Notes: a model not told the origin generated them from the sequence alone. A DNA stretch of 20,499 nucleotides from a virus (IMGVR_UViG_3300028189_000067), one strand, 5' to 3'. Positions 1-18,915 are shown, counted from the stretch's first letter. A program made the numbers and translations.

Positions 1-849
1 ATACTTCTCTGCCAATTCTAAAAGACCGTAATAACGATTAAGGCCTTCATCATAACTTAGAAGTACATCAACTCTCTTGTTTTCTTTCGCAAGTCTGGAT
101 TTAAAGTTTTTACAATGAATGATGTTACCAACTACATCCGTGCCGACTTTTTCCTTTTTCTTGGAGAGGAAAACGATATTAGATGCTGCGTACTGCAAGC
201 CAGAACCTCCCCCCATAATGTCTTGAGGAAACATAGCTCCGACTTGTTTGTATGTGTGATTAGTAACCAGTAACGGTATTCCAGCTTTGGCAAGTTTAAG
301 AGTCAATACTCTAAATGCACCCTTTACGATTCGTGCCTTAGTCATATCTACTTTATTCGCACCCACAGTAATGTCTTCAACTTCTTTTGCTGTAGATAAC
401 ATACCAAGACTATCAAGACAAAGTAAAAGTGGTGCTTCACTTTTCTCTATATGTCTGTCTACTACTCTTGATGCTTGTTGAGCAAAGTCCTGTATCGTCG
501 CGACTGGTAATTGAATAAATCTTGTTTTATCAATATCCCGCTCTTCAATCATTTCTGGCGTTAGAGCAGACTCAGACTCAAAATACAAAACGCCGCCGCT
601 AGGATTATCTGCAAGAAACTGTCTGACAATCCCAAGTATGAAGAAAGTCTTACCCGTTGCTGACTCACCCGCGAAAGCAGTGATTTTATTGGACGGTAAA
701 CCTTTGTGAATGCTTCCCGAAATAAGTGCATTAAGTATATAACTTCCTGTGTCAATATATTCATTTACGCTCCCTAGCATCCCTTCTGAAACTTTGGATG
801 CATATTGGTTTCCTGTTATTCCTATTAATTCATCAAAATAATCGCTCAT
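1..849 (-). CDS. uvsX: RecA-like recombinase UvsX (3' end truncated by window start)
   Basis: Not in the ORF track because it has no stop in the window. Manual translation from ATG 849: [23 protein letters not shown]...[39 protein letters not shown] (Walker A)...[11 protein letters not shown] (Walker B)...VTNHTY...[12 protein letters not shown]. Start overlaps the upstream stop (ATGA). Confidence 0.95.
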
Positions 850-3555: not shown

Positions 3556-3583
3556 ATTATACCATATCTACAGGTTTTGTCAA
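3556..3583 (-). promoter_or_regulatory. Sigma70-type promoter P1 (TTGACA-N16-TATAAT, TGn extended -10)
   Basis: Minus strand reads TTGACAaaacctgtagatatggTATAATagacgtATG. The -35 contains the gp43 TGA stop. Confidence 0.8.
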
Positions 3584-6045
3584 GTGAAAAAACTCATGAT
3601 ATTAGTTTTTCTTTCATGTTCCCAGCCGATAACATTGAGAATACCGATTATAGGATCAAGGAAAGCTTTGGTAAATTGTTTTTCATAATCTATGTATGGT
3701 TTCAACTCAAACTCGTCTGGTAAAGCATTTAACATAGCAATTACAGTATCACCAGTTGGATTTGGTTCTTTTAGATAAGCAAACTTAATCTTCTCACCTT
3801 CTTGGATTTTTGGATACTTTCTTGTCAATCGTTTGTTCTGTAACATCTTATTGTAGATTAAAGAACCTTTAACATGAATCGGTGTAGACTTTTGATAGAT
3901 TGACGCTGCATCATGGTACTTGGCAAGACCTTTTACCGATCTTGGAAAAGAAACTTCTTCTGTAGGAAGTGACTTGAACTTAGTCTTGAAACCTTCAATG
4001 TAGTTGATTACATCTTCTTCAGTTCCATTCATCATAATCTTGAATGCCTCTTTGAGAGCGTTACGGCAAGATTCTGGAGTAGAACTCCTGACAGCTTCAA
4101 TACCCATAATCTTGAGTTTGGGTTCATCATATTGAACACCTTCAGAGTTGTGAACATTCAGAATGTAATGTTTCTTACTTGTCCAAATACCAACCTCTGC
4201 TAATACTTCGCGTTTCATTACCATCTTCTGTTCAAATGCATTTACATACTCGGCCATTTCACCATAACACTTATCAATTACATCTTGAATTTTACCTTCA
4301 CAAACCTTATCCATGAACTCTATAATTTTATCTGTATCTGTAAGACCTACTTTTTGTACAAGAGACTCAAGAGTAACGTACAGAGAGTCAGTATCGGAAG
4401 CAAGGACATAATCATGGTTTTCTGTCTCCATTATTTTGTTTAAGTATTGATTGACTGCTCTCTCAGCCCACCGAATGGAAAGTTGACCCGCAACGGATAC
4501 AGCTTCAGCATTCCTTACATCATAAAAACGAAACCATTGATTACCAAGGGCTCCGTAGGCTGAGTTGAGAGCAATCTTTAAGTTGATCTGCATATTGTGA
4601 TACTGAGCCAATTTGTTAGTATCTGCAGCCTTACCTTTCTTCTGTTCCGCAATCATCAAATCTTTATACTTGACGCGGTCAGTGTACATCTTCTCCATGA
4701 GTGCTGGAAGAAAACCCTGTTTCTTACGAGTATACAACGAACCATTTGGAGTCATGGTAAGATTTTTCTCTTTAAGAAAGGCAACATCAAATTCTCTATC
4801 AAGTAAAGCATCTACCAGACCAGACTCAGGATACATACCTACAAGAGTCTCAGGAGAAATATTGTACTGCATTATCAGATGCGGATACAAAGAATTCAAG
4901 TCAAAACTAGCAACCCACTTGTGCCGACCAATTTGAGGATCTTTCACATAGGCACCTTCATAACCTTCAGTTTTAGTCGAGTGTTTCTTTGGGGGAACAA
5001 CAATTTGTTGGTCTTTCAGATGATTGTAAATAATACAATCCCACATCTTTACTGGACTGAACACATCATTGAAATTACACTTTGACATGTAAGCTAGTGA
5101 GATAATCATCTCCAAGAGTTTCATCTTTTCTTCTAGTCTTTCTAACAAGACAACATCATGAACATTGTAATCAACGAATTTCTGAAAGTTTGTTTGATAC
5201 AGTTCATGTAGCGAAGAGTATTCTGAATAGTCTAGTTTCTTTTCTCCTAACTCTGCGTAGGCAATGTGATTCAAAGAATAAGACTCTTGATTGACATAAG
5301 TAAACTTCTTATAAGCGTCCATATAGTCAATACTTGAAATACCGACCAGATCAAAAACCTGCATCTGTCTATTACCAAATATATTTACTTCATGCTCTTT
5401 ATACCAGCCCCACGGCGAGAGTTTCTTAGCCATCTTCTCACCAAGTACTCTGACGATGCGATTAACAAGAAATGGAATATCAAAAAACCTTGAGTTCCAT
5501 CCAGTAATGATATCTGGATAATTCATAGACCAATCAAGTACAAAATTTTCTAATAGTCTTGTTTCGTTCTCACAATGAATATACTCAACACCTTCGGCCG
5601 GTGTGTATTCCTGACAACCATACACCTTGAAACTTTTTCCACAACGATAAGAGATAGCCAAGACTTCTTCATTAGCACTTCTTACATCTGGAAAACCATG
5701 TTCTGAGCTGGTTTCAATATCAATGAATCCAATCTTGATCTTATCTAAATCGTAGTCAACCATACCACGATAGTTATCAGAAATAAAAGAATATTGAAAC
5801 TGGTCAAATCCAAAAACATTACCGCCATAATCTTTCATGGCTTGGCGAGAATCTTTCATAGAGCCCCACTTCACAGGAGCAACATTGCGATCATCTAGAG
5901 TTTTCCATTGGGGATTTTGAGGTTTGTGAGATTCTACAAATAAGGTAGGTTCGTAGTTCAATTTTTCTTTGAAAGATTCACCACGATCATTCACACCTCG
6001 CAGAGCAATAAAATTACCATGAGGTTGGACATTAGTATAAAACAT
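3580..6045 (-). CDS. 43: Family B DNA polymerase, T4 gp43-like
   Basis: Exo I DIET, Exo II GWNSRFFD, FDLNSLYP, KIALNSAYG, SDTDS, KKHY motifs. C-terminal clamp-binding-type tail TNIMSFFT. No intein-sized insertion. Confidence 0.97.
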   Translation of the reverse strand: MFYTNVQPHGNFIALRGVNDRGESFKEKLNYEPTLFVESHKPQNPQWKTLDDRNVAPVKWGSMKDSRQAMKDYGGNVFGFDQFQYSFISDNYRGMVDYDLDKIKIGFIDIETSSEHGFPDVRSANEEVLAISYRCGKSFKVYGCQEYTPAEGVEYIHCENETRLLENFVLDWSMNYPDIITGWNSRFFDIPFLVNRIVRVLGEKMAKKLSPWGWYKEHEVNIFGNRQMQVFDLVGISSIDYMDAYKKFTYVNQESYSLNHIAYAELGEKKLDYSEYSSLHELYQTNFQKFVDYNVHDVVLLERLEEKMKLLEMIISLAYMSKCNFNDVFSPVKMWDCIIYNHLKDQQIVVPPKKHSTKTEGYEGAYVKDPQIGRHKWVASFDLNSLYPHLIMQYNISPETLVGMYPESGLVDALLDREFDVAFLKEKNLTMTPNGSLYTRKKQGFLPALMEKMYTDRVKYKDLMIAEQKKGKAADTNKLAQYHNMQINLKIALNSAYGALGNQWFRFYDVRNAEAVSVAGQLSIRWAERAVNQYLNKIMETENHDYVLASDTDSLYVTLESLVQKVGLTDTDKIIEFMDKVCEGKIQDVIDKCYGEMAEYVNAFEQKMVMKREVLAEVGIWTSKKHYILNVHNSEGVQYDEPKLKIMGIEAVRSSTPESCRNALKEAFKIMMNGTEEDVINYIEGFKTKFKSLPTEEVSFPRSVKGLAKYHDAASIYQKSTPIHVKGSLIYNKMLQNKRLTRKYPKIQEGEKIKFAYLKEPNPTGDTVIAMLNALPDEFELKPYIDYEKQFTKAFLDPIIGILNVIGWEHERKTNIMSFFT

Positions 6046-8757: not shown

Positions 8758-9285
8758 TTATACGCCGGTTGAACCAAATCCACCTTCACGCTCGGTCTTC
8801 TGAACTGGTGGTTTTTTGATTTCGGTTAAACCATGATATATCTTTTTCACCAATTCAGCCTGACATACTCTATCTCCATTATTTATGGTCTTTGGAGCTT
8901 GAGATATGCTAGTCATCATAACGAAAATAGGATTTACATAGTCAGAATCTATTATACCTTCACTATTTGTTAAGTATAACCCATCGTTCCAAGCCAAACC
9001 TGACCTAGAATGAAGTCTAACTGAGTAACCTTCTGGAATATCAAAAATCAATCCAGTAGGAATCATTACTCGTTCCATGTTATTTATTTGAAGAACTCCG
9101 TTCTTGAATGGTTTTTCGATTACTCTATTTAGAGTATCTTGACGGATTTGATATTTTTCTACTCCGTCAAAACACGCGTGAATATCGAAACATGCTGAAC
9201 CCTCTGTTGCATAAATGGGGTCTTTAGCATTCGGATGTAATTTATAAAATTTTAATATTTCATTCTTGGTTGTTTTGGTCGCCAT
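8758..9285 (-). CDS. dut: Trimeric dUTPase (start revised to MATKTTK)
   Basis: ATEGSACFDI, HSRSGLA, EGIIDSDY, GDRVCQ, REGGFGSTG (motifs I-V). Confidence 0.95.
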   Translation of the reverse strand: MATKTTKNEILKFYKLHPNAKDPIYATEGSACFDIHACFDGVEKYQIRQDTLNRVIEKPFKNGVLQINNMERVMIPTGLIFDIPEGYSVRLHSRSGLAWNDGLYLTNSEGIIDSDYVNPIFVMMTSISQAPKTINNGDRVCQAELVKKIYHGLTEIKKPPVQKTEREGGFGSTGV

Positions 9286-9688
9286 CTTCAGTCCTTTTAC
9301 TTCCAATATTATATTTTGCTGTAAGATCCCATTGGTCTTTTTCTTTAAAAGATAGGATCTTTAGTTGATTCAATGGAACAACTAATTCACTTGAAGAGTC
9401 TGGATTCACTAGTGCAATTAAGCCCCATTCCGATAAAAGATTTGCTATTGTATTACGTCTTGCTTGGTCGTTTTCTGAGAAGTTGGTTGGTTTACCATCA
9501 AGTGCAAATAATTCTTTAAAATGTACGATATAGTATCTACCCTGTTTATGTAGTATGTGACAAGATTGATATATTATTTTGTCTTTTCGGGAAGCTACCC
9601 CGATTCTAGTAAGTGTTTCACGCACCTTGAGAAAATCATCTGGATTTTCCAGAGTGCACTCCACCATGTTCTCTGTTCCTGTTGTCAT
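9260..9688 (-). CDS. regA: Translational repressor RegA (start revised to MTTGTEN)
   Basis: PDDFLKVRETLTRIGVASRK...QSCHILHKQGRYYIVHFKELFALDG is the T4 RegA signature. GGAG SD precedes ATG 9688. Confidence 0.95.
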   Translation of the reverse strand: MTTGTENMVECTLENPDDFLKVRETLTRIGVASRKDKIIYQSCHILHKQGRYYIVHFKELFALDGKPTNFSENDQARRNTIANLLSEWGLIALVNPDSSSELVVPLNQLKILSFKEKDQWDLTAKYNIGSKRTEDGDQNNQE

Positions 9689-10064
9689 TTTCCACTCCAC
9701 CTTGATTCAGTTTATCTATGATATAAGCCAACTGATCCTCGGAGAGTATTCTTAGAGCATCTTTGGCTTTCTCATAACTAAATCCATAATACTCTTTCAC
9801 CAATTCAACATTCTGTAGTTTCTCTGGTTTCAGCCACTTACTATACCTTCGTTTCTTTCTAATATTATTTATAAGATAGTCAAACTGAAGTCGGCTGTCA
9901 AGGTGGTGGTTGCGATTCATCTCATTTACTTGAAATATGGTGTCCATAAAGAAAGATAGACCGCGATTAACGATAAAAGGTGAATACTTCCTCTCATCTT
10001 GAGGAGTAAGCATTACATTCTCTTTGGTTTCGTTAATTGATTTTAGGTAATCAAATGGACTCAT
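9636..10064 (-). CDS. 62: Clamp loader small subunit, gp62-like
   Basis: PFDYLKSIN...YSPFIVNRGLS...KRRYSKWLK...VKEYYGFSYEKAKDAL. Directly precedes regA as in T4. Confidence 0.9.
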   Translation of the reverse strand: MSPFDYLKSINETKENVMLTPQDERKYSPFIVNRGLSFFMDTIFQVNEMNRNHHLDSRLQFDYLINNIRKKRRYSKWLKPEKLQNVELVKEYYGFSYEKAKDALRILSEDQLAYIIDKLNQGGVENDNRNREHGGVHSGKSR

Positions 10065-10070
10065 AATACT

Positions 10071-10098
10071 ATTATACCATATTAAAGTGTTTTGTCAA
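10071..10098 (-). promoter_or_regulatory. Sigma70-type promoter P4 for gp62 (TTGACA-N16-TATAAT, TGn)
   Basis: TTGACAaaacactttaatatggTATAATagtattATG. Confidence 0.8.
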
Positions 10099-10111
10099 GT
10101 TTTTTATCCAC

Positions 10112-11047
10112 TTATTTTTCAATAAAATCTTTCAAGTTTGACACTACGGATTCACTAATACGTTTTTCGGATAAAGCAGCATACTCTGGATTTAATTCAC
10201 ACCCAATGTATTTTCTTCCATTATTACGAGCAACAACAGCTGTCGTTCCACTTCCCATAAATGGGTCAATCACAATTCCATTCGGTGGGCAAGTAGAGAG
10301 TATCGGTCTTTCAATTAGTTCTGGTGGATACACAGCAAAATGTGCACCCTTGTAAGATGAACCAGAAATATCCCACACGCTGAACATCGGTCTACTTGGG
10401 CATTTGCCAGAAGCAATCAGTTCATCATAATTGAAATCTTTTTCAATATCCAAAGACTCTCTCATTTTAGCATAGTGTTGGTCTTGTCTTTTAGAACTCA
10501 AAGAGAATCCTTCTTTCTCTACAGTGTCAACATCTTTTCTTTTCTCAAGATGATTAGTAGAGAACATTCTACGAATAGTCACTTCTGCTTGAGGAACTTG
10601 AATTGGTTTTCTGTCAAAATAGTAACCTTTTGTTTTCTTCACAAACCAGAAAATCTTTTCGTGATTAGACCAAAACCTATCTTTAGAAGATATGGGTTGA
10701 GGATTGGGTTTGTTCCAAATGATTTCGTTTCTCAGACTCCACCCAGCATCGCTCATAGCAATCTCAAATCTGGAAGGAACTTGTAACAATTTTTTGTCTG
10801 AATAAGTATCACCAATATTTACCCAGCACGAACCAGTAGGTTTCATAACTCTGTAAATTTCATTGAACACTTCAATCAGACCATCTACAAAATCAGTTAC
10901 AGTAGGTTCGGAACCAAGTTGATCATCATTCTTATAATCTCTTAGATTGTAATACGGTGGCGATGTGATACACATATCCACCGATTCATCGGGCAATGTT
11001 TTCAATGTTTCCACGTTGTCACCCACATAGATGTGATTTGTTTTCAT
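10112..11047 (-). CDS. Beta-class amino-methyltransferase (N4-C/N6-A), MTase-1
   Basis: Catalytic TSPPY near the N-terminus and SAM-binding DPFMGSGTT near the C-terminus (beta order). Confidence 0.93.
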   Translation of the reverse strand: MKTNHIYVGDNVETLKTLPDESVDMCITSPPYYNLRDYKNDDQLGSEPTVTDFVDGLIEVFNEIYRVMKPTGSCWVNIGDTYSDKKLLQVPSRFEIAMSDAGWSLRNEIIWNKPNPQPISSKDRFWSNHEKIFWFVKKTKGYYFDRKPIQVPQAEVTIRRMFSTNHLEKRKDVDTVEKEGFSLSSKRQDQHYAKMRESLDIEKDFNYDELIASGKCPSRPMFSVWDISGSSYKGAHFAVYPPELIERPILSTCPPNGIVIDPFMGSGTTAVVARNNGRKYIGCELNPEYAALSEKRISESVVSNLKDFIEK

Positions 11048-11050
11048 AGA

Positions 11051-11584
11051 TTAAGGTTTCAACTTATAGGTTTCAAAAGGAAATGTTTTAAAAAATCTAG
11101 TCTTACCAATAGCGGCTTTCTTATTAAGTACTCCACTACGATACAACTCCAATACTTCATCTGATGAGATCTCGTATAACTTAGGATTGGTACGAAGTCT
11201 ATCTCTCAGATCGACAAAGACATAAGAATCGATTGACTCAAGTTTATCAAGGAATGTAGACTCTTCAAAGAATCGACCTTTACCCCTCGCTGTAGAAGGA
11301 GCAAAAGAAATCTCTGCCGTGAGACATATGTTACGAACTTCAATTTTTTTACGAAGTCTATGAAATGCTACAACATCCCACTTCAACTGCTCACCCAAAA
11401 TACGTTTAGCGTTCAACTTGTTTGCTACCCACTGTTCACTAATTCCAGACAGGGTAGTTCCAGTAACACTTTCGACATATTCTTCAGCTGACACACCTAA
11501 CGCTTTAGCGATGGTATCTACGTCAACTTCTACTTCAGCAAAATCACTTATTCTATTTGTATTTTTCAATAATTCCATAATCAA
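11051..11584 (-). CDS. Putative PD-(D/E)xK restriction-like endonuclease
   Basis: SE(helix)...KWD-x10-IEVR fits a degenerate E...D...ExK/R core, and the gene is flanked by MTases. Function is inferred; the ORF itself is solid. Start may be 11578. Confidence 0.55.
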   Translation of the reverse strand: MIMELLKNTNRISDFAEVEVDVDTIAKALGVSAEEYVESVTGTTLSGISEQWVANKLNAKRILGEQLKWDVVAFHRLRKKIEVRNICLTAEISFAPSTARGKGRFFEESTFLDKLESIDSYVFVDLRDRLRTNPKLYEISSDEVLELYRSGVLNKKAAIGKTRFFKTFPFETYKLKP

Positions 11585-11599
11585 ATTTTATTTAATGTT

Positions 11600-11626
11600 A
11601 AAAATGGAAAGGGTCAATCCCTTTCC
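11600..11626 (-). terminator. Terminator-like hairpin between promoter P5 and the nuclease start
   Basis: GGAAAGGG-attga-CCCTTTCC followed by ATTTTT. Confidence 0.6.
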
Positions 11627-11642
11627 TTACTCTCTAACTATA

Positions 11643-11671
11643 ATTATACAGATTCGAGTAACCTTTGTCAA
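11643..11671 (-). promoter_or_regulatory. Sigma70-type promoter P5 (TTGACA-N17-TATAAT) upstream of the nuclease-like gene
   Basis: TTGACAaaggttactcgaatctgTATAAT. Confidence 0.8.
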
Positions 11672-11681
11672 GCCAAATCTT

Positions 11682-12698
11682 TTAATCTTTATAAAATGAT
11701 TCTAGTGTTTGTTCATTGGTTCTTTGATTTTCAATCTGTATATTCTCTTCTGTAATTTTGAAGAACTGCTCAGAAGCCTCAAATCCTATGTACTGCCTAC
11801 CTAGTTGAGATGCCCGAACTAATGTAGTTCCTGTACCCGAAAATGGATCAAGAACAACTCCACCTTCTGGACATCCTGCTATAATAGGTTTATCAATTAG
11901 TTCTGAATTATATGATGCAACGTGAGAAGAACTATTCCCTTTAGTTGGAATATTCCAGAAATCTGACACATCTCCTGGATTCTTGCCGTTCTTATTTAAA
12001 TGTGTTTCACCATTTTTCAACTTTTCATCCATATTATCATATCCAACATACTCTCTTTCCTTAGACATGGTATTCACTGGTTCACATGGTACGGTTCCTG
12101 AGTATTTATTCTTATTAGAACCGCGCATTGCTCTTTTGATCGAACCAATCATATGTTCTTCGCGAATACTATCAAGATCAAAATAATAACCAGTAGGGTT
12201 CTTTGTCATTAAAAATATGTATTCGTGTTTCTTTGAAAATCTATCACGAACTGGTTCAGGCATACCATTTCTCTTTGCCCAAATAATATCATTACGAATA
12301 GTCCATCCACGGTCATAACAACCAATTGCAAATCTATGAGGTATCAATAATAATGACTTAATTTTCATTGTTGGTTGTGATATCCTCATTTTACCCAAAT
12401 AATTACCAGACTTTGATGGTTTTTTCCAACCAGACGCCAATCCACCAGATTTAGTAGAATATGTATCACCAAGATTAATCCACACTGTTCCAGTATCCTT
12501 TAATACTCTATGAATTTCATCCATCATCTTCCATAGATTTTCAAGATACTCATGGAAAGTGGGTTCTAATCCCCATTGACCATCAAACCCATAATCCCTA
12601 AGTTGCCAGTATGGTGGTGAAGTTATAACACAATCAACTGACTCGGAATCTAACTTACCGAACCCTTCCATTATATCACAATTGAATATTTTATTCAT
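11682..12698 (-). CDS. Beta-class amino-methyltransferase (N4-C/N6-A), MTase-2
   Basis: TSPPYWQLRDY ... DPFSGTGTT. Same subfamily as MTase-1, with a different central target-recognition region. Confidence 0.93.
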   Translation of the reverse strand: MNKIFNCDIMEGFGKLDSESVDCVITSPPYWQLRDYGFDGQWGLEPTFHEYLENLWKMMDEIHRVLKDTGTVWINLGDTYSTKSGGLASGWKKPSKSGNYLGKMRISQPTMKIKSLLLIPHRFAIGCYDRGWTIRNDIIWAKRNGMPEPVRDRFSKKHEYIFLMTKNPTGYYFDLDSIREEHMIGSIKRAMRGSNKNKYSGTVPCEPVNTMSKEREYVGYDNMDEKLKNGETHLNKNGKNPGDVSDFWNIPTKGNSSSHVASYNSELIDKPIIAGCPEGGVVLDPFSGTGTTLVRASQLGRQYIGFEASEQFFKITEENIQIENQRTNEQTLESFYKD

Positions 12699-13504
12699 TA
12701 TTTTTTGATAATCAATAGTTCTGTACCTACAGACTGTTCTTTTTTAGCAGACGCCATACTCGCCTTTTTATAATCTTTTTTAACCCACTCGTACTTATCT
12801 TCTGGATACCATTTTTTCATCTCTGGAAATTCGTAGTAACTCAGAATCCAACGACTCCTACAGTGGTTCAACATATCAGCCAGTTCTTCGTGTTTCTCTT
12901 TCGTGAAGTTATGAAACGAGTAGAGATTTTCTGTTCCGTAATATGGGGGGTCTACATACAAACAAGTTCCAGAGCCATCAACTGACGGAATGAAATCTTC
13001 AAATGACTGAGATACTACTTTGATCTTTTCTAGTTTTTTCTGAACTTTTTCATTCTTGACTCTACCAGTAAAAGAATTATACTTTGAATTGTACTTCCCC
13101 TTGAGGTCAACGTATTTTACTTTCTCCGACATGATACCAGAAAAACATTGTGTGATAATATACACATACTTTGCAGCTAATTCAAAATCTGGCATATTAA
13201 TAATGTTACCAGAATTTATAACATCTAGAACATCACTCTTACAACGATTGAATTCTTCCGCACCTATTTGAGCAACGCGGGATTCTAGAAACGGAATAAA
13301 CTTCTCATACTCACTACAACAATACAAAAGATTTGCCATCTGAGTATTGAAATCATTATAGTGAACATCATCTGCGTTTACTTTCCCATTGACGTATACC
13401 CACATCGCACCACCAAATACTTCAGCGTATTTTTCATTATTATTTGGAACATATTTCGATATCCACTTTGCCTGTCTATACTTACCACCTATGTAAGAAA
13501 ACAT
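12698..13504 (-). CDS. Alpha-class (Dam-like, D12) N6-adenine methyltransferase
   Basis: FSYIGGK (motif X), EVFGGA (motif I), YVDPPYY (motif IV). Specificity not determinable from sequence. Confidence 0.9.
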   Translation of the reverse strand: MFSYIGGKYRQAKWISKYVPNNNEKYAEVFGGAMWVYVNGKVNADDVHYNDFNTQMANLLYCCSEYEKFIPFLESRVAQIGAEEFNRCKSDVLDVINSGNIINMPDFELAAKYVYIITQCFSGIMSEKVKYVDLKGKYNSKYNSFTGRVKNEKVQKKLEKIKVVSQSFEDFIPSVDGSGTCLYVDPPYYGTENLYSFHNFTKEKHEELADMLNHCRSRWILSYYEFPEMKKWYPEDKYEWVKKDYKKASMASAKKEQSVGTELLIIKK

Positions 13505-13580
13505 ATTATACCTTTTTATTCATTATTATTTTAGAGATTTACTTATGGTACATCTATTTCATTCATTAACAATTTATCAA

Positions 13581-14525
13581 TCATTTAAATGAACACTCGA
13601 CCATAATTTCCGTCAGACAAGCCACCATATTGATTTCTTGGTCTGCCACGAATGCCGACTTATACTGGTAGTCAGCGACAATTAACACAGCCTGAGGAAC
13701 AGACTGAGGTTTGAGATGTTGATGAAAATTATCATACAACTTGCGAAATAACTTAGCGGTGTCTTGATCCATGTTCTGGTTCACCCACTTGCGAACTTCA
13801 GAAAACTTTTTACCCCTCAATCCATTGACAAGTTCTGCAAGATTAATCTCATTAAGATTACTAAGTATGCCGGTATCAATTACACCCGAAACAGAATATC
13901 GTTGTAACTCATTTAACACTCTCCGAAAATCTGGAAAGTATTTCATAATGAGTTCAGCCAAAACTTTACGTTCAAACCTTACTTCTTCTTTCTCAAGAAT
14001 ACCTTCACATAATTTGAGATAGTTCTCAGCAATCTTTGGTTTCTCATTATTTGGAATTACAAAATCAAAGACAGCACAGCGAGAGTGAATGGGATCAATA
14101 ATACGACTACGATAATTACAAGTAAAAATAAAAGAGACATTATTTCCAAATCTTTCAATGAAACCTCTCAGTGCGGGTTGAACCGAATCAGCATTCATGT
14201 AGTCAGCTTCATCCATGATGATGGCTTTACGTTTGCCAGTCATGGAAACTGAACTACAGAATTGTGTTAAAGTAGTTCTTACAGTATCTATGTTCCTACC
14301 TTCATCAGAACCATTGACCATCAAATAGTCAAGACCAACTTCTTCACAAAGAGCTCTAGCAATAGTTGTCTTACCACTGCCGGGGCCACCACATAAAATT
14401 AAATTGGGAACTTTGCCTTGCTCCACATATTCAGAGAAGGGCTCTTGAAGATCACTAGGTAGGACACATTCAGATACTTTTGATGGGCGATACTTTGAAA
14501 CCCATAAAAAATCATCTCGTTGCAT
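13581..14525 (-). CDS. 44: Clamp loader large subunit (AAA+), gp44-like
   Basis: GGPGSGKT, MDEAD, SRC and FPDFRR motifs. Confidence 0.96.
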   Translation of the reverse strand: MQRDDFLWVSKYRPSKVSECVLPSDLQEPFSEYVEQGKVPNLILCGGPGSGKTTIARALCEEVGLDYLMVNGSDEGRNIDTVRTTLTQFCSSVSMTGKRKAIIMDEADYMNADSVQPALRGFIERFGNNVSFIFTCNYRSRIIDPIHSRCAVFDFVIPNNEKPKIAENYLKLCEGILEKEEVRFERKVLAELIMKYFPDFRRVLNELQRYSVSGVIDTGILSNLNEINLAELVNGLRGKKFSEVRKWVNQNMDQDTAKLFRKLYDNFHQHLKPQSVPQAVLIVADYQYKSAFVADQEINMVACLTEIMVECSFK

Positions 14526-15181
14526 TATCCTCCAAATGTTGAATCAGATTCGGTAGCAATATAATAATGAAGAGGTGTAGAGGTATGCGTAAACTTTGAA
14601 ATACCTTTAGAAGTAATTTCAACATTATAATCACCATTGAATAATTTAAGATTTTCAATCTTGAAAACCATATTAAAAGTCAAACTTGTTTCACCAAGTT
14701 CTGTAGTAAACTCATCAGAAGAAGAATTGTTAATATCAGTTGCAACAATAGTCATCTTACCACCTTTACTTTCAACACAAATATGAGGAAGACCAAGAAC
14801 AGCAGCTGCCTTAATTACTTGAGAGAAATCACCCCTACTCAAAGTAAAAGAAACTTCTGGATCTGGAAAAACCAAATCTTTTTCTGGTGGAGAAACAATC
14901 ATCGCTGGGTCAGCAAACATATAGTCTACCTTTCCACCAATCTTCATAGTCTTATCTCCAATTTCCAAATCTGGATCTTGAAACAAAGACATCACACCAA
15001 GCAGTTTGTTCAAATCATAAATCGCAAAGTCGCTTGGGAATGACTCTGGAATTTCTGCAGACACAAGAATGTTCTTCTGTGCAGAAATGGTTTGAATTCT
15101 ATTACCAGCCTTGAACTGAATATTCTGGTTTATTCCAGAAAAGTTTTTCAGTAAGGACACTGTTTGTTCACTTAATTTCAT
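14525..15181 (-). CDS. 45: Sliding clamp, gp45-like (start revised to MKLSEQ)
   Basis: MKLSxxTxxLLKNFSGINQ ... FAIYDLN signature. GGAG lies 6 nt before ATG 15181. Confidence 0.95.
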   Translation of the reverse strand: MKLSEQTVSLLKNFSGINQNIQFKAGNRIQTISAQKNILVSAEIPESFPSDFAIYDLNKLLGVMSLFQDPDLEIGDKTMKIGGKVDYMFADPAMIVSPPEKDLVFPDPEVSFTLSRGDFSQVIKAAAVLGLPHICVESKGGKMTIVATDINNSSSDEFTTELGETSLTFNMVFKIENLKLFNGDYNVEITSKGISKFTHTSTPLHYYIATESDSTFGG

Positions 15182-15208
15182 AGTATACTCCATTTAGTTT
15201 GTATAACC

Positions 15209-15236: not shown

Positions 15237-16196
15237 CTATTTTTTCTCTTTTCTGCTCTTTCTGGCTGATTTTCTTTTCTCAGAACGATTCAAAGTTTTA
15301 CCTGCTGCTTTTTCAGCTTCTTTTTCTTCTTCTTCAGAAATGTTATGGGGTCTACTTTCCATATCATTACCATGTGCAGCAAAGTCCAGATTACCAAGTG
15401 CTGGTAAAGTTCCATTGAAAACATAAGAACCGACATGGCCAAGTTTCATCCAAGGACACAACCAAGTTGAAATACCAATCTTGCGAGTGAACTGACAGAA
15501 CATATAATCTTCTGAAAGATAGCGGTCACTTCCACCAGACCCCTTTCCAGCAAATGCTTCAGAGTCAATCACAGTATCAAAGAATGCGTGAATGTATCTT
15601 GAACCATCAAAGTTTTCTGACCGATTGTGGTCAGGCTTGTAGGAAAACTGAGGATATGCATCTCTAAACTTCTCCAAAACTTCTCTGGCAATCAACATAA
15701 AGCCAGTTCCAATTTCAAGAACTTCAACTGGTTCTGATACTTTGATTTCTGTTGTTCCACCAATCGGATTGAACACAAAGTCACCAGTAAATTCTTCAAG
15801 TTTGGTGGGGTCATCATCCGCCATTCCAGCATCAACTGCGTTACGAACTTTCTCCCAAGCAATAACTTTTTTAGGATAGGGTGCGCCAATAATCTCTTTA
15901 TCAAGTGCTGCCAAAGTCAAAACATCATTTGGATTAAAGTGTATGTCTGAATCAATGAACATCAAATGAGTATAAGGACTACGGAGAAATTCATCAACCA
16001 GATAATTTCTTGCGCGTGTAATTAGACTTTCATTAAACAAATAGAAAAACCTTACATCCATACCATACTGAGTGGCTATGGTTGCTAGGTCAGCTGTAGA
16101 CTTTGTGTACATTCCAGAACACATACCACCATACATGGGTGTTGCTACAAAGATTTTCTTTTTGCGGAGTTCTTCAATTTTAATTTCAATTTCCAT
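15237..16196 (-). CDS. GT-A fold (GT2-like) glycosyltransferase-like protein
   Basis: IFVATPMYGG ... NESLITRARN ... HLMFIDSDI (DxD) ... LSEDYMFC ... KLGHVG. Charged low-complexity tail. Confidence 0.8.
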   Translation of the reverse strand: MEIEIKIEELRKKKIFVATPMYGGMCSGMYTKSTADLATIATQYGMDVRFFYLFNESLITRARNYLVDEFLRSPYTHLMFIDSDIHFNPNDVLTLAALDKEIIGAPYPKKVIAWEKVRNAVDAGMADDDPTKLEEFTGDFVFNPIGGTTEIKVSEPVEVLEIGTGFMLIAREVLEKFRDAYPQFSYKPDHNRSENFDGSRYIHAFFDTVIDSEAFAGKGSGGSDRYLSEDYMFCQFTRKIGISTWLCPWMKLGHVGSYVFNGTLPALGNLDFAAHGNDMESRPHNISEEEEKEAEKAAGKTLNRSEKRKSARKSRKEKK

Positions 16197-16256: not shown

Positions 16257-16285
16257 AGTATAACATATTTATAAGTTGCTGTCAA
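16257..16285 (-). promoter_or_regulatory. Sigma70-type promoter P7 (TTGACA-N17-TATACT) with a late TATAAATA motif (16266-16273) in its spacer
   Basis: TTGACAgcaactTATAAATAtgtTATACT. The -35 contains the TGA stop of 16282..16500. Confidence 0.7.
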
Positions 16286-18886: not shown

Positions 18887-18915
18887 ATTATACAGATTTG
18901 AAAGTCATCTGTCAA
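18887..18915 (-). promoter_or_regulatory. Sigma70-type promoter P8 (TTGACA-N17-TATAAT) followed by a hairpin at 18853-18875
   Basis: TTGACAgatgactttcaaatctgTATAAT, then GAGTGAGAAA-ggg-TTTTTCACTC. Confidence 0.8.

Follow-up and report, generated by a model that had tools for sequence, protein, structure and literature searches.

The 3.5-kb insert that separates gp44 from gp62 in the viral DNA analysed here (IMGVR_UViG_3300028189_000067; the whole stretch of 20,499 nucleotides is called the window) is probably a composite of independently acquired cassettes, in which orphan methyltransferases (MTases) adjoin a phage-borne Type II restriction-modification (R-M)-like module with orf177 as R and MTase-1 as M. 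All genes of the locus lie on the minus strand, and their assignment via Pfam and PHROGs (Table 1) bore out the order given by an earlier, sequence-only reading, namely gp45, gp44, a D12-class MTase, the beta-class MTase-2, a consensus promoter with a stem-loop, the putative nuclease gene orf177, the beta-class MTase-1, a second consensus promoter, gp62, and regA. The RM-like island that this reading had placed between gp44 and gp62 survives in part: a predicted nuclease/MTase unit of R-M type is situated there, but the four genes do not constitute one system. A run belonging to a different study contains a 1638-base DNA contig that agrees with positions 10252-11889 without a difference and reaches from MTase-1 across orf177 and the promoter into the end of MTase-2, so the gene arrangement is not a quirk of a one-sample assembly.

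Table 1. Features of the gp45-regA locus, with coordinates in the window.
Feature	Position	Strand	Basis or remark
gp45 sliding clamp	14525-15193	(-)	gp45-slide_C 5e-14; phrog_223 1.6e-72
gp44 clamp-loader large subunit	13581-14525	(-)	Gp44_lid 2e-15, AAA 3.7e-15, phrog_168 1e-117
D12-class (alpha, DPPY) N6-adenine DNA MTase	12698-13504	(-)	PF02086 7.6e-22
Beta-class MTase-2, motif IV SPPY	11682-12698	(-)	PF01555 2.1e-49
Promoter and stem-loop border (PeSL-type)	11606-11671	(-)	promoter 11671-11643, stem-loop and T run 11626-11606
orf177	11051-11578/84	(-)	177 aa with a TTG start, 175 aa with an ATG start; 11578 is the ATG version
Beta-class MTase-1, motif IV SPPY	10112-11047	(-)	PF01555 9e-55
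Segment swapped in sister contig L050	10082-11572		blastn; 1491 bp here vs 2457 bp in L050
Sigma70-like promoter before gp62	10071-10098	(-)	perfect consensus; constant right border of slot
gp62 clamp-loader small subunit	9636-10064	(-)	Phage_clamp_A PF16790 1.4e-13; phrog_225 2.2e-42
regA translational repressor	9260-9700	(-)	PF01818 9.7e-46

orf177 and MTase-1 are a conserved pair. MTase-1 starts 3 nt past the orf177 stop, and at all 18 IMG/VR loci the orf177 homolog is immediately followed, in the same orientation, by an ortholog of MTase-1 (57-92% identity); with L025 and L155 added, this holds for 20 of 20 contigs. The genomic surroundings of the pair are of at least six kinds. Type II R-M systems are recognised by adjacent, co-inherited nuclease and MTase genes and by an MTase with motifs IV and I, and both features are found here, with orf177 as the predicted nuclease: the MTase-1 translation contains TSPPY as motif IV and DPFMGSGTT as the SAM-binding motif I, scores 280.6 bits against PADLOC MTase_II, and is matched by M.PvuII (1boo) at E 2.3e-18. 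MTase-1 probably yields N4-methylcytosine. M is better conserved than R (about 68-75% vs 44-51%), two of eight close MTase-1 orthologs (L022, L023) stand without orf177 beside a D12 MTase, and no controller (C) gene was seen with the pair. The sequence-only reading was to be abandoned if relatives routinely carried unrelated genes at this place and the MTases occurred independently of the 177-aa gene; the slot does routinely hold other genes, and the D12 MTase and MTase-2 do occur independently of orf177, but MTase-1 stays tightly linked to it.

The D12-class MTase is read as an orphan and MTase-2 as an orphan that is independently mobile; most likely, the former (N6A) and the latter would pre-methylate the phage DNA against host restriction. 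The stop of the D12 MTase overlaps the start of MTase-2 (TAATG), and its score against TIGR00571 dam (69.4 bits) is under the cutoff of 114.85. Orthologs of it (85-99%) are found alongside MTase-2 in L050, L051, and L075 and without MTase-2 in L022. The 26 viral loci found with MTase-2 orthologs include none with orf177, and of the 20 contigs with orf177, none has an MTase-2 ortholog nearby and only one (L014, 37% identity) a Dam-like gene. In L052, a 97% identical copy of MTase-2 adjoins a DNA polymerase that is just 49% identical. A two-MTase, Type IIS-like system was discarded as a candidate, with MTase-2 and the orf177 pair separated by ~40 kb on a contig of 115 kb.

By sequence, orf177 falls into no curated nuclease family: it matched no Pfam, PHROG, or NCBIfam family (0 Pfam families even at E <= 10), its family profile found NhoI in the PDB only at E 0.89, and membership in the PvuII family (PF09225) was rejected, with no Pfam match and an hhalign probability of 1.8% against the PvuII-family alignment. 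PADLOC REase_II PDLC03550 matched weakly (E 1.1e-4, 140/160 profile positions), and the closest ESM-Atlas cluster, auto-named 'putative R.RsaI endonuclease' (0.96), serves as a lead only. The AF2 model of orf177 (pLDDT 81.6) looks like a restriction enzyme with a full-length PvuII/BisI-type PD-(D/E)XK fold that would form a symmetric homodimer. Searched with Foldseek, the model gave eight matches at E <= 0.001, all of them BisI-family restriction enzymes (NhoI, Eco15I), with PvuII next (E 0.005-0.1). VIA-align yielded Z 9.9 for NhoI (132 aligned, rmsd 3.7), Z 8.9 for Eco15I, Z 8.8 for the PD-(D/E)XK homing endonuclease I-Ssp6803I, which is thus among the best structural matches, and Z 8.5 for PvuII (129 aligned, rmsd 3.5), such scores of 8-10 being only modestly higher than the stated background of Z 7-8. 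The alignments with NhoI and PvuII take in residues 10-175, that is, almost the entire protein. Counting against an R-M reading, the enzymes matched best in structure are modification-dependent and need no cognate MTase.

The predicted homodimer is symmetric with contact through residues 16-61 and scored 0.65, 0.69, and 0.64 (none of the 3 controls exceeding 0.00), the dimer mark of this scale being attained by 20 of 30 solved homo-pairs as against 1 of 23 single chains; the models agree in at least 94% of contacts and have a pLDDT of at least 84. In the model, the motif E48 / W-D68 / E80-V-R82 sits on the expected helix and strands and parallels the E50 / WD / QVK described for NhoI (PMC11347163). 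E48, D68, E80, and R82 are conserved in 90% or more of the 62 family members, a diverse set in which the relatives compared share only 21-50% identity. Because the position of the canonical (D/E)XK lysine is taken by arginine (R82) throughout the family, catalysis by orf177 is not assured. Arginine in place of this lysine is not known from any characterised PD-(D/E)XK restriction enzyme.

Both promoters named in the sequence-only reading are present as perfect TTGACA-N16/17-TATAAT elements (12/12 positions for the one ahead of orf177); seven such promoters occur in the window, all on the minus strand, vs 0.02 expected from shuffles. Downstream of the promoter ahead of orf177 lies the stem-loop GGAAAGGG-ATTGA-CCCTTTCC with its T run (8-bp stem; the stem region folds at -16.8 kcal/mol), so that MTase-2 and orf177 are separated by a strong promoter with a terminator-like stem-loop. 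That gp62 has a promoter of its own, as had been proposed, is likewise supported: the -10 ends 6 nt ahead of the gp62 ATG, a register kept in 35 of 75 relatives regardless of cargo. Promoter-early stem-loop (PeSL) cassettes are documented mediators of gene shuffling (PMC2839356, PMC4122927); they combine a strong sigma70-like promoter with an intergenic stem-loop upstream of a variable ORF and lie at replacement breakpoints between close relatives, and the element at 11606-11671 shows both properties, homology to the sister contig L050 stopping at 11573.

L050 is identical to the window by 81% in gp44, 92% in the D12 MTase, and 99% in MTase-2, and shares the promoter and stem-loop, which there lead into another ORF, of 169 aa, and a DPPY beta MTase. 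The blastn alignment of the two is collinear over 16226-11573 and 10081-7707, without homology between, so that it ends just past the PeSL element and restarts inside the gp62 promoter. The 169-aa ORF carries the canonical D..EYK motif of the PvuII family, and its 57%-identical homolog P0222 matches Pfam Endonuc-PvuII (PF09225) with 28.3 bits (cutoff 25). The module has also moved as a whole: L004 contains, between dUTPase and Hsp20, a block of 92.7% identity that comprises exactly the -10, the stem-loop, orf177, and MTase-1, in flanks of only 65-67% identity, the PeSL element having travelled with the module to this other site. The L004 allele is 99.8% identical (626 bases compared) to a copy upstream of gp62 in L026. 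In natural populations, the stretch is present to at least 78% in 14 DNA runs, and alternative slot alleles occur together in the same samples of seawater: the alternative-allele contigs X2 and X15 from the same runs have a loose end at 10093, diverging exactly at the gp62 promoter, and further contigs in the same samples carry other sequence right after the gp44 stop (loose end at 13583). Contigs from metatranscriptome libraries cover the locus as well, although such coverage is no proof of transcription.

With gp44 as its left border, the gp44-gp62 slot is a hypervariable hot spot of DNA modification and restriction across relatives. The contiguity of 45-44-62-regA that was taken as normal for T4-like phages fails for this lineage, as the Pelagibacter phages Mosig and HTVC008M, the Methylophilales phage Melnitz, and dozens of uncultured relatives have other genes between gp44 and gp62. 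Their cargo includes C5-MTases, a TET-associated glycosyltransferase, Mom proteins, and a SinI-like nuclease, the commonest alternative allele being a C5-cytosine MTase (22 of 42 loci).

Against the R-M reading, virulent phages seldom carry complete R-M systems, with 9 in 831 phage genomes vs 143 solitary MTases (PMC4176335), and the PvuII-family ORF of the cultured phage P-SSM2 lacks an annotated neighbouring MTase. Nuclease activity, a shared specificity, protection by MTase-1, and a biological role of the module, as we infer them, would combine as follows. Driven by its own early promoter with stem-loop (PeSL-type), the module would supply a small homodimeric PD-(D/E)XK endonuclease and an MTase that marks the same site. 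The phage DNA would arrive methylated and remain at least hemimethylated through replication, and orf177 could cut the unmethylated host chromosome in the infected cell, leading to shut-off and nucleotide salvage, as well as co-infecting phages without the mark. Recombination at its promoter and stem-loop borders probably moves and swaps the module itself.

One integrated four-gene system, be it two beta MTases for an asymmetric site or a DpnII-like trio of alpha MTase, beta MTase, and nuclease, as the sequence-only reading had suggested, is very improbable. In its favour, all four genes adjoin one another on a single strand, the first two overlap, and the order alpha MTase, beta MTase, nuclease is that of DpnII. 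Yet both versions founder because MTase-2 and Dam-like genes are rarely or never found with orf177; moreover, L050 retains the D12 MTase and MTase-2 with a different nuclease and MTase, the promoter and terminator-like stem-loop part MTase-2 from orf177, and orf177, lacking any Pfam match at all, thus has no match to a DpnII family. A free-standing homing-type or mobility endonuclease that spreads its own cassette, with MTase-1 as hitch-hiker or target-site protector, would suit the structural similarity to I-Ssp6803I, the evident recent movement (near-identical copies at two sites), and the abundance of free-standing homing endonuclease genes between core genes of T4-type phages (PMC2993671), but is unlikely as well: homing elements recur at one cognate site, so the variety of contexts of the module argues against site-specific homing, its strict MTase linkage implies a frequent short target needing genome-wide protection, the proteins matched over the full length are Type II enzymes that act as dimers, in line with the symmetric dimer predicted for orf177, and the promoter and stem-loop borders can account for mobility without a dedicated nuclease.

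We consider it very unlikely that orf177 is a modification-dependent, BisI-like nuclease against foreign marks, for example those of C5-MTase siblings, with MTase-1 either unrelated to self-protection or keeping the mark off the phage's DNA. NhoI and Eco15I are its best structural matches, the C5-cytosine MTase is the commonest alternative allele, and both alleles coexist in the same samples; such enzymes, however, need no tightly linked, probably co-translated MTase, the sequence match to the BisI family is not significant (E 0.89), and PvuII, a classical enzyme with a beta-class N4C MTase, fits nearly as well. Distinctly unlikely, too, is a catalytically dead (K to R) DNA-binding partner or regulator of MTase-1, with all three MTases serving purely for anti-restriction. 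While the family-wide arginine and the usually solitary nature of phage MTases speak for it, the conservation of the metal-binding E48, D68, and E80 among such divergent sequences is unexpected for a dead site, and the sister phage has the canonical PvuII-family ORF at the same position.

Chlorella viruses possess R-M systems that spare self DNA and cut other DNA, and such phage and giant-virus systems resemble the window's module, as predicted for orf177 and MTase-1, in that a virus encodes both nuclease and MTase. With PvuII R-M, the module has in common a nuclease of small size (about 160-175 aa) and like fold over the whole length, dimerisation via N-terminal helices (predicted for orf177), and a beta-class MTase partner with an S-P-P-aromatic motif IV in a two-gene unit; it differs in lacking a detectable sequence relation, in having EVR instead of E-x-K and no visible C gene, in its co-oriented order R then M, and in residing on a virulent-type T4-like phage rather than on a plasmid or chromosome. 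The BisI family shares the alpha-1 helix glutamate, followed by WD and by polar-x-basic on the next strand (PMC11347163), but requires 5mC in GCNGC and has no cognate MTase, whereas orf177 is always followed by an amino-MTase. The PeSL cassettes of T4-type phages (PMC2839356, PMC4122927) likewise place a strong sigma70-type promoter and a G-run/C-run stem-loop just upstream of a variable gene, and the core of the window's stem, A3G3-loop-C3T3, agrees with the consensus published for the nt-1 pair; the window's element, too, sits exactly at a gene-replacement breakpoint between close relatives. Their cargo is described there mainly as ORFans in hyperplastic regions, whereas the window's is a two-gene R-M-like unit inside a replication-gene cluster, with a promoter without stem-loop as right border.

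More speculatively, the junction between gp44 and gp62 might be, in this marine T4-like lineage, an 'epigenetic identity' locus, an idea we regard as possible but doubtful, at which siblings coexisting in the same seawater carry mutually exclusive marking and restriction cassettes (amino-MTases with PvuII-fold nucleases, a C5-MTase with or without SinI-like nuclease, a TET-associated glycosyltransferase, or Mom). If so, recombination between conserved promoter and stem-loop borders would exchange the cassettes, the nuclease alleles would be weapons in a phage-vs-phage contest during co-infection and tools for host-DNA breakdown, and the slot would be a phage counterpart of the bacterial defence island, inside the clamp-loader operon. 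Marine C5-MT/TET clusters, as described in PMC8256090, differ in being modification-only and are not presented as alleles of one gp44-gp62 slot, while the window's allele is an amino-MTase with a predicted nuclease; the neighbours reported for these contigs, Hsp, 'clamp loader A subunit', and DNA polymerase, are the same as here.

The window, 20.5 kb from a marine T4-like myovirus, is a block of replication genes, and every gene in it lies on the minus strand. Since the Pfam and PHROGs gene assignments and the promoter search agree with it, the gene order with two promoters described in the sequence-only reading is correct. Altogether, the window contains seven perfect TTGACA-N16/17-TATAAT sites, each of them on the coding strand, where shuffled sequences give an expectation of 0.02. 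The closest cultured relatives by gp44, at only ~55 % identity, are the Pelagibacter phages Mosig and HTVC008M, the Methylophilales phage Melnitz, and cyanophages, and a megablast search with 9200-15200 returned no match among 50,697 phage records. Just upstream of gp45, a 319-aa ORF (15237-16196; phrog_1574, 4e-65) has its own near-consensus promoter and is 85-100 % conserved among relatives. Several 4-base palindromes are scarce in the window relative to Markov expectation (GCGC 0.24, TCGA 0.45, CCGG 0.46, GATC 0.54, GTAC 0.59), 20 kb being too small and unspecific for a recognition-site call.

Genes and promoters of the block, with positions in the window
Feature	Position	Strand	Basis
gp45	14525-15193	-	Pfam/PHROGs
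gp44	13581-14525	-	Pfam/PHROGs
D12-class N6-adenine MTase	12698-13504	-	Pfam/PHROGs
MTase-2, beta-class N6_N4 MTase, 338 aa	11682-12698	-	Pfam/PHROGs
Promoters, perfect TTGACA-N16/17-TATAAT	11671-11643 and 10098-10071	-	
orf177, 175 aa from ATG	11051-11578	-	matches no family
MTase-1, second beta-class MTase, 311 aa	10112-11047	-	Pfam/PHROGs
gp62	9636-10064	-	Pfam/PHROGs
regA	9260-9700	-	Pfam/PHROGs
dUTPase, Hsp20, M15 peptidase, DNA polymerase (downstream of regA)	3580-6045 (DNA polymerase)	-	Pfam/PHROGs

The genes between gp44 and gp62 do not travel as one block. An IMG/VR search seeded with orf177, the predicted nuclease, yielded 18 loci, all 18 with an MTase-1 ortholog (57-92 %) immediately downstream on the same strand. 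The same order was seen in L025 and in the one contig (L155) retrieved by a narrow-alignment profile search of genome contigs, giving 20/20 orf177 contigs with MTase-1 directly downstream; several of these loci are near-duplicates, and the contexts differ. The pair precedes gp62 in the window and in L005, sits between dUTPase and Hsp20 in L004, precedes a Dam-like gene and gp45 in L014, and follows a cluster of tail-fibre, 2OG, and endonuclease V genes in loci of the L011 type. It comes after a helicase in L006 and L016 and before one in L019, lies near Mom-like and cobS genes in L021, and is carried on a contig of 48 % GC in L020. A search seeded with MTase-1 gave 30 loci, eight of them at ≥67 % identity; among these eight, orf177 lies upstream in five, a D12 MTase takes its place in two (L022, L023), and one breaks off at the contig end. 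At L022 (3116-4581), a 194-aa ORF (phrog_1111 'endonuclease', 2.9e-12) precedes a D12 MTase and an MTase-1 ortholog without orf177, a slot allele that may represent a further nuclease/MTase combination.

Because orf177 was absent from all 26 loci of an MTase-2-seeded search, as opposed to the 20/20 linkage with MTase-1, orf177 and MTase-1 are one unit, and MTase-2 and the D12 MTase are separate passengers. The D12 MTase itself accompanies MTase-2 at only 3/26 loci (L050, L051, L075), a 97 % identical MTase-2 adjoins a polymerase of only 49 % identity in L052, and one 115-kb contig carries MTase-2 and the orf177 pair ~40 kb apart. One integrated multi-MTase system, as the sequence-only reading had proposed for the three MTases and the nuclease, is thus disfavoured by the co-occurrence data. 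In L051 (3400-8400, compared with window 1-849), gp45 and gp44 proteins are 100 % identical to those of the window and the DNA is 96.9 % identical over window 11682-15131; beyond MTase-2, other genes follow, namely those for glutaredoxin and a 2OG oxygenase, an intein-bearing RecA/UvsX-like gene, and a DnaB/gp41-like gene with Hint/intein domains. L051 also matches window 1-204 at 99 %, and either a real rearrangement skipping ~11 kb or a chimeric assembly would account for this.

The module of orf177 and MTase-1 can be exchanged for another. In the sister contig L050, gp44 (81 %), the D12 MTase (92 %), and MTase-2 (99 %) share the given identity with those of the window, DNA homology stops at 11573 and restarts at 10081, and between these breakpoints, behind an identical promoter and stem-loop, L050 encodes a different ORF of 169 aa together with a DPPY beta MTase and another two ORFs. 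The 169-aa ORF has 460 metagenomic homologs, one of which (57 % identical) passes Pfam Endonuc-PvuII; its family retains D58..E67-Y-K69 and weakly matches PvuII itself (E 0.03). The position after this regulatory element is hence filled by either of two sequence-unrelated pairs of a small predicted nuclease and an MTase. Homology between the orf177 family and that of the L050 ORF is not supported at sequence level, as hhalign gave non-significant probabilities of 0.6 % for the orf177 family against the L050 ORF and 1.8 % against its family alignment; the D and E-x-K/R columns coincide when the two families are aligned. In the cultured Prochlorococcus phages P-SSM2 and P-TIM68, 49-51 % homologs of the L050 ORF are annotated as hypothetical (PSSM2_100.1, L156, and gp050, L157); gp050 has an annotated methylase gene on each side, and no MTase is annotated beside PSSM2_100.1.

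The module has also moved. Over the block 11648-10112, which comprises the -10 element, stem-loop, orf177, and MTase-1, identity to L004 is 92.7 %; the L004 copy sits between dUTPase and Hsp20, and its flanks are only 65-67 % identical. L026, with gp62, regA, and dUTPase proteins 100 % identical to those of the window, carries the L004 allele of MTase-1 upstream of gp62 (99.8 % over 626 bases). The window allele differs from that of L004/L026 in patches, namely by 20 aa within orf177 residues 31-144 and by 24 aa within MTase-1 residues 147-256 (window 11100-11500 and 10200-10600, respectively), and the ~400 nt between the patches are identical. As the patches fall in the core of the nuclease and in the central, variable part of the MTase, the two proteins could conceivably have changed specificity in step.

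The left border consists of the promoter at 11671-11643 and, 16 nt after it, the stem-loop GGAAAGGG-ATTGA-CCCTTTCC with a T run. In T4-type phages, promoter-early stem-loop cassettes (PeSLs) combine strong sigma70-like promoters with terminator-like stem-loops, which in one subclass lie downstream of the -10 element, and mediate modular shuffling (PMC2839356, PMC4122927); the nt-1 PeSL consensus reads A3-4G3-loop-C3T3-4 (PMC4122927). The border agrees with PeSLs in having a promoter and stem-loop, in the position of the stem downstream of -10, and in its association with shuffling. Stem-loops are also located within ~40 nt downstream of the strong promoters 18887-18915 (-10.5 kcal/mol) and 16257-16285 (-14.5 kcal/mol, followed by a T run), and PeSL-like elements are therefore not confined to the cassette.

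The orf177 protein has 35 close metagenomic homologs and 88 at E ≤ 0.001 among 1.8 billion cluster representatives, none of them named, the clusters of ten distant relatives bearing only 'hypothetical protein' names. Nothing meaningful was retrieved from Pfam, PHROGs, or NCBIfam, tblastn against 50,697 phage records gave no match, and a profile of 62 family sequences found NhoI as the best relevant PDB sequence at a non-significant E of 0.89. Matches of 6/62 members to DUF6998 are uninformative, and the automatic name 'R.RsaI' of the nearest protein-atlas cluster is a lead only. A PADLOC model of Type II REases was matched weakly but over nearly its full length (E 1.1e-4). An AlphaFold2 model from a 15-row alignment (mean pLDDT 81.6) gave eight Foldseek matches at E ≤ 0.001, all to restriction enzymes of the BisI family (NhoI, Eco15I), with PvuII next (E 0.005-0.1). 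According to VIA-align, whose own note places background at Z 7-8, NhoI scores Z 9.9 (132 aligned, rmsd 3.7), Eco15I 8.9, I-Ssp6803I 8.8, and PvuII 8.5 (129 aligned, rmsd 3.5), followed at lower values by archaeal Hjc, RecU, and DpnI. With scores this near background, the fold call relies, beyond the score itself, on the consistency of the list and on full-length coverage, the NhoI and PvuII alignments spanning residues 10-175.

Seven residues are conserved in at least 90 % of the 62 relatives (21-50 % identity), namely E48, D68, E80, R82, S95, K112, and D123. In the model, E48 is placed on the helix that precedes the sheet, W-D68 opens a strand, and E80-V-R82 sits on the next, an arrangement that, as modelled, is the canonical PD-(D/E)XK layout except for arginine in place of lysine. 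The corresponding motif of NhoI is E50, WD, QVK (PMC11347163, section 21), and the same paper names PvuII as the classical enzyme most closely related to the BisI family. A homodimer prediction passed with scores of 0.65, 0.69, and 0.64 (best of three controls 0.00), at a mark reached by 20/30 solved homo-pairs and 1/23 single chains; contact agreement is ≥94 %, pLDDT ≥84, and the interface spans residues 16-61. As similar dimers are solved, this is a likeness and not a proof.

Motif IV reads SPPY in both beta MTases, and SPPY in the solved N4-cytosine MTase N4CMT stands at the place of DPPY in the adenine MTase CcrM (PMC10406627). Together with the annotation of the best cultured-virus match of MTase-1 (44 %) as an N4-cytosine MTase, this suggests that the two may methylate N4 of cytosine; PDB similarity does not discriminate here, as CcrM, N4CMT, RsrI, and PvuII MTases all match. 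The D12 MTase has DPPY and scores 69.4 against NCBIfam dam, below the cutoff of 114.85, so that a GATC specificity is not established.

The best-supported reading is that of a PeSL-borne Type II restriction-modification (R-M)-like module beside two orphan MTases, whereby methylated phage DNA would be spared and unmethylated DNA of the host or of rival phages would be cut. Its weak points are the K-to-R change, the lack of sequence-level family membership, and the middling Z scores of the predicted structure. Alternatively, orf177 might be a homing-type nuclease, which we regard as unlikely, or, more doubtful still, a dead nuclease-fold partner; a modification-dependent nuclease seems slightly less probable again. 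Regarding the R-M-like module, complete R-M systems are reported as rare to nearly absent in virulent phages (9 in 831 genomes, PMC4176335), cyanophage MTases are commonly regarded as a passive means of anti-restriction (PMC12801897), and the available parts of the cyanophage and other-phage literature describe no complete system in marine T4-like phages (PMC12801897, PMC12707154, PMC4176335). A recurrent, mobile R-M-like module in these phages is a modest novelty. It brings forward an uncharacterised candidate nuclease family for which Pfam, PHROG, and NCBIfam have no model. The family always comes with a single MTase lineage, is spread over six or more sites in the genomes of aquatic T4-like phages, and can be swapped for a PvuII-family pair that follows an identical promoter. 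Should it prove active, the module would provide marine phages with offensive restriction against host DNA or rival phages and be a source of new restriction enzyme and MTase specificities.

A more interesting by-product than the module are the DNA-modification alleles massed at a single junction of the clamp-loader operon. Genes 45-44-62-regA had been taken as normally contiguous, which does not hold in this lineage: the gp44-gp62 slot contains a 2OG-Fe(II) oxygenase in Mosig, a hypothetical gene and a 2OG-Fe(II) oxygenase in HTVC008M, and a 60-aa ORF in Melnitz. In an IMG/VR scan seeded with gp62, from which the best 80 of 250 relatives were retained, spacing ranged from 3 bp to ~6.8 kb (tblastn coordinates); the gap measures 3-342 bp in ten distant loci (L145-L154, gp44 ~52 % identical), and the slot is occupied in all nearer relatives. 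In L014, gp44 and gp62 are 5 bp apart. Slot ORFs were read in 42 of the 80 loci, leaving aside 27 with less than ~1.2 kb visible upstream of gp62, L116 (the L050 contig), and the ten distant ones; the 137 ORFs formed 54 clusters, of which one representative each was compared with Pfam. At 22/42 loci, the cargo consists of a C5-cytosine MTase (PF00145, 1.1e-51) and a class-I SAM MTase of 230 aa, mostly accompanied by an Asn-synthase/QueC-like protein and at two loci (L131, L132) also by a SinI-like nuclease adjoining gp62 (PF09570, 25.8 bits, cutoff 22). Six loci carry a TET-associated glycosyltransferase (PF20691, 4.4e-38) and a 118-aa ORF, five Mom-family proteins (PF25680), and four an uncharacterised 433-aa protein, followed in L123 and L124 by thymidylate-synthase-like and AsnB-like genes; the remainder hold other N6_N4 MTases, endonuclease VII, or ORFs without match. 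GmrSD_N-like matches in other alleles (24.3 and 32.0 bits) fell below the Pfam cutoff of 33.2 and were not counted. MTase-1 adjoins gp62 only in L026 and L076 among the best 80 of 250, both cut by contig ends.

Given this varied cargo, the slot is a hyperplastic hot spot in which genes for DNA modification and restriction are strongly enriched. The neighbours reported for marine C5-MT/TET clusters (Hsp, 'clamp loader A subunit', and DNA polymerase genes; PMC8256090) fit those of the window, whereas a single allelic junction is not described in the available part of that source. With DNA-modification diversity concentrated at one defined junction of a core replication operon, the slot can serve as a practical marker locus from which phage epigenetic strategies are readable in metagenomes. 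A tRNA-3'-end-like sequence, ...GGTTCGA(T/G)TCC...GCTCGCTCCA, forms the end of the 60-nt stretch directly upstream of gp62 in L130, L133-L136, and L138-L140 as well as L086 and L101, and by this resemblance some slot alleles seem to include a tRNA gene.

The right border is constant. Whatever the cargo, exactly 6 nt separate the -10 element of the gp62 promoter from the ATG (TATAAT-AGTAYT-ATG) in 35/75 relatives, a register found at window 10062-10098 and in L077-L104, L111, L116, L131, L132, L142, and L144. Transcription from this promoter would begin at the AUG or beside it, so that the mRNA of gp62 may lack a leader. In public data, a 4-kb stretch is ≥78 % covered in 14 DNA runs, and a DNA contig from another study spans MTase-1, orf177, and the end of MTase-2 without a difference. 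Contigs from metatranscriptome libraries (X15 records 2-5, X17 records 19-20) match orf177 and MTase-1 with 0-4 differences, which does not show expression since DNA may be present in such libraries. In runs X2 and X15, contigs with a match to gp62 part from the window at 10093 and go on with a sequence whose reverse complement is the C5-MTase-type allele flank of L104 and L142, and one further public-run contig diverges right after the gp44 stop; as these divergent contigs occur in the same runs, alternative slot alleles coexist in the same samples.
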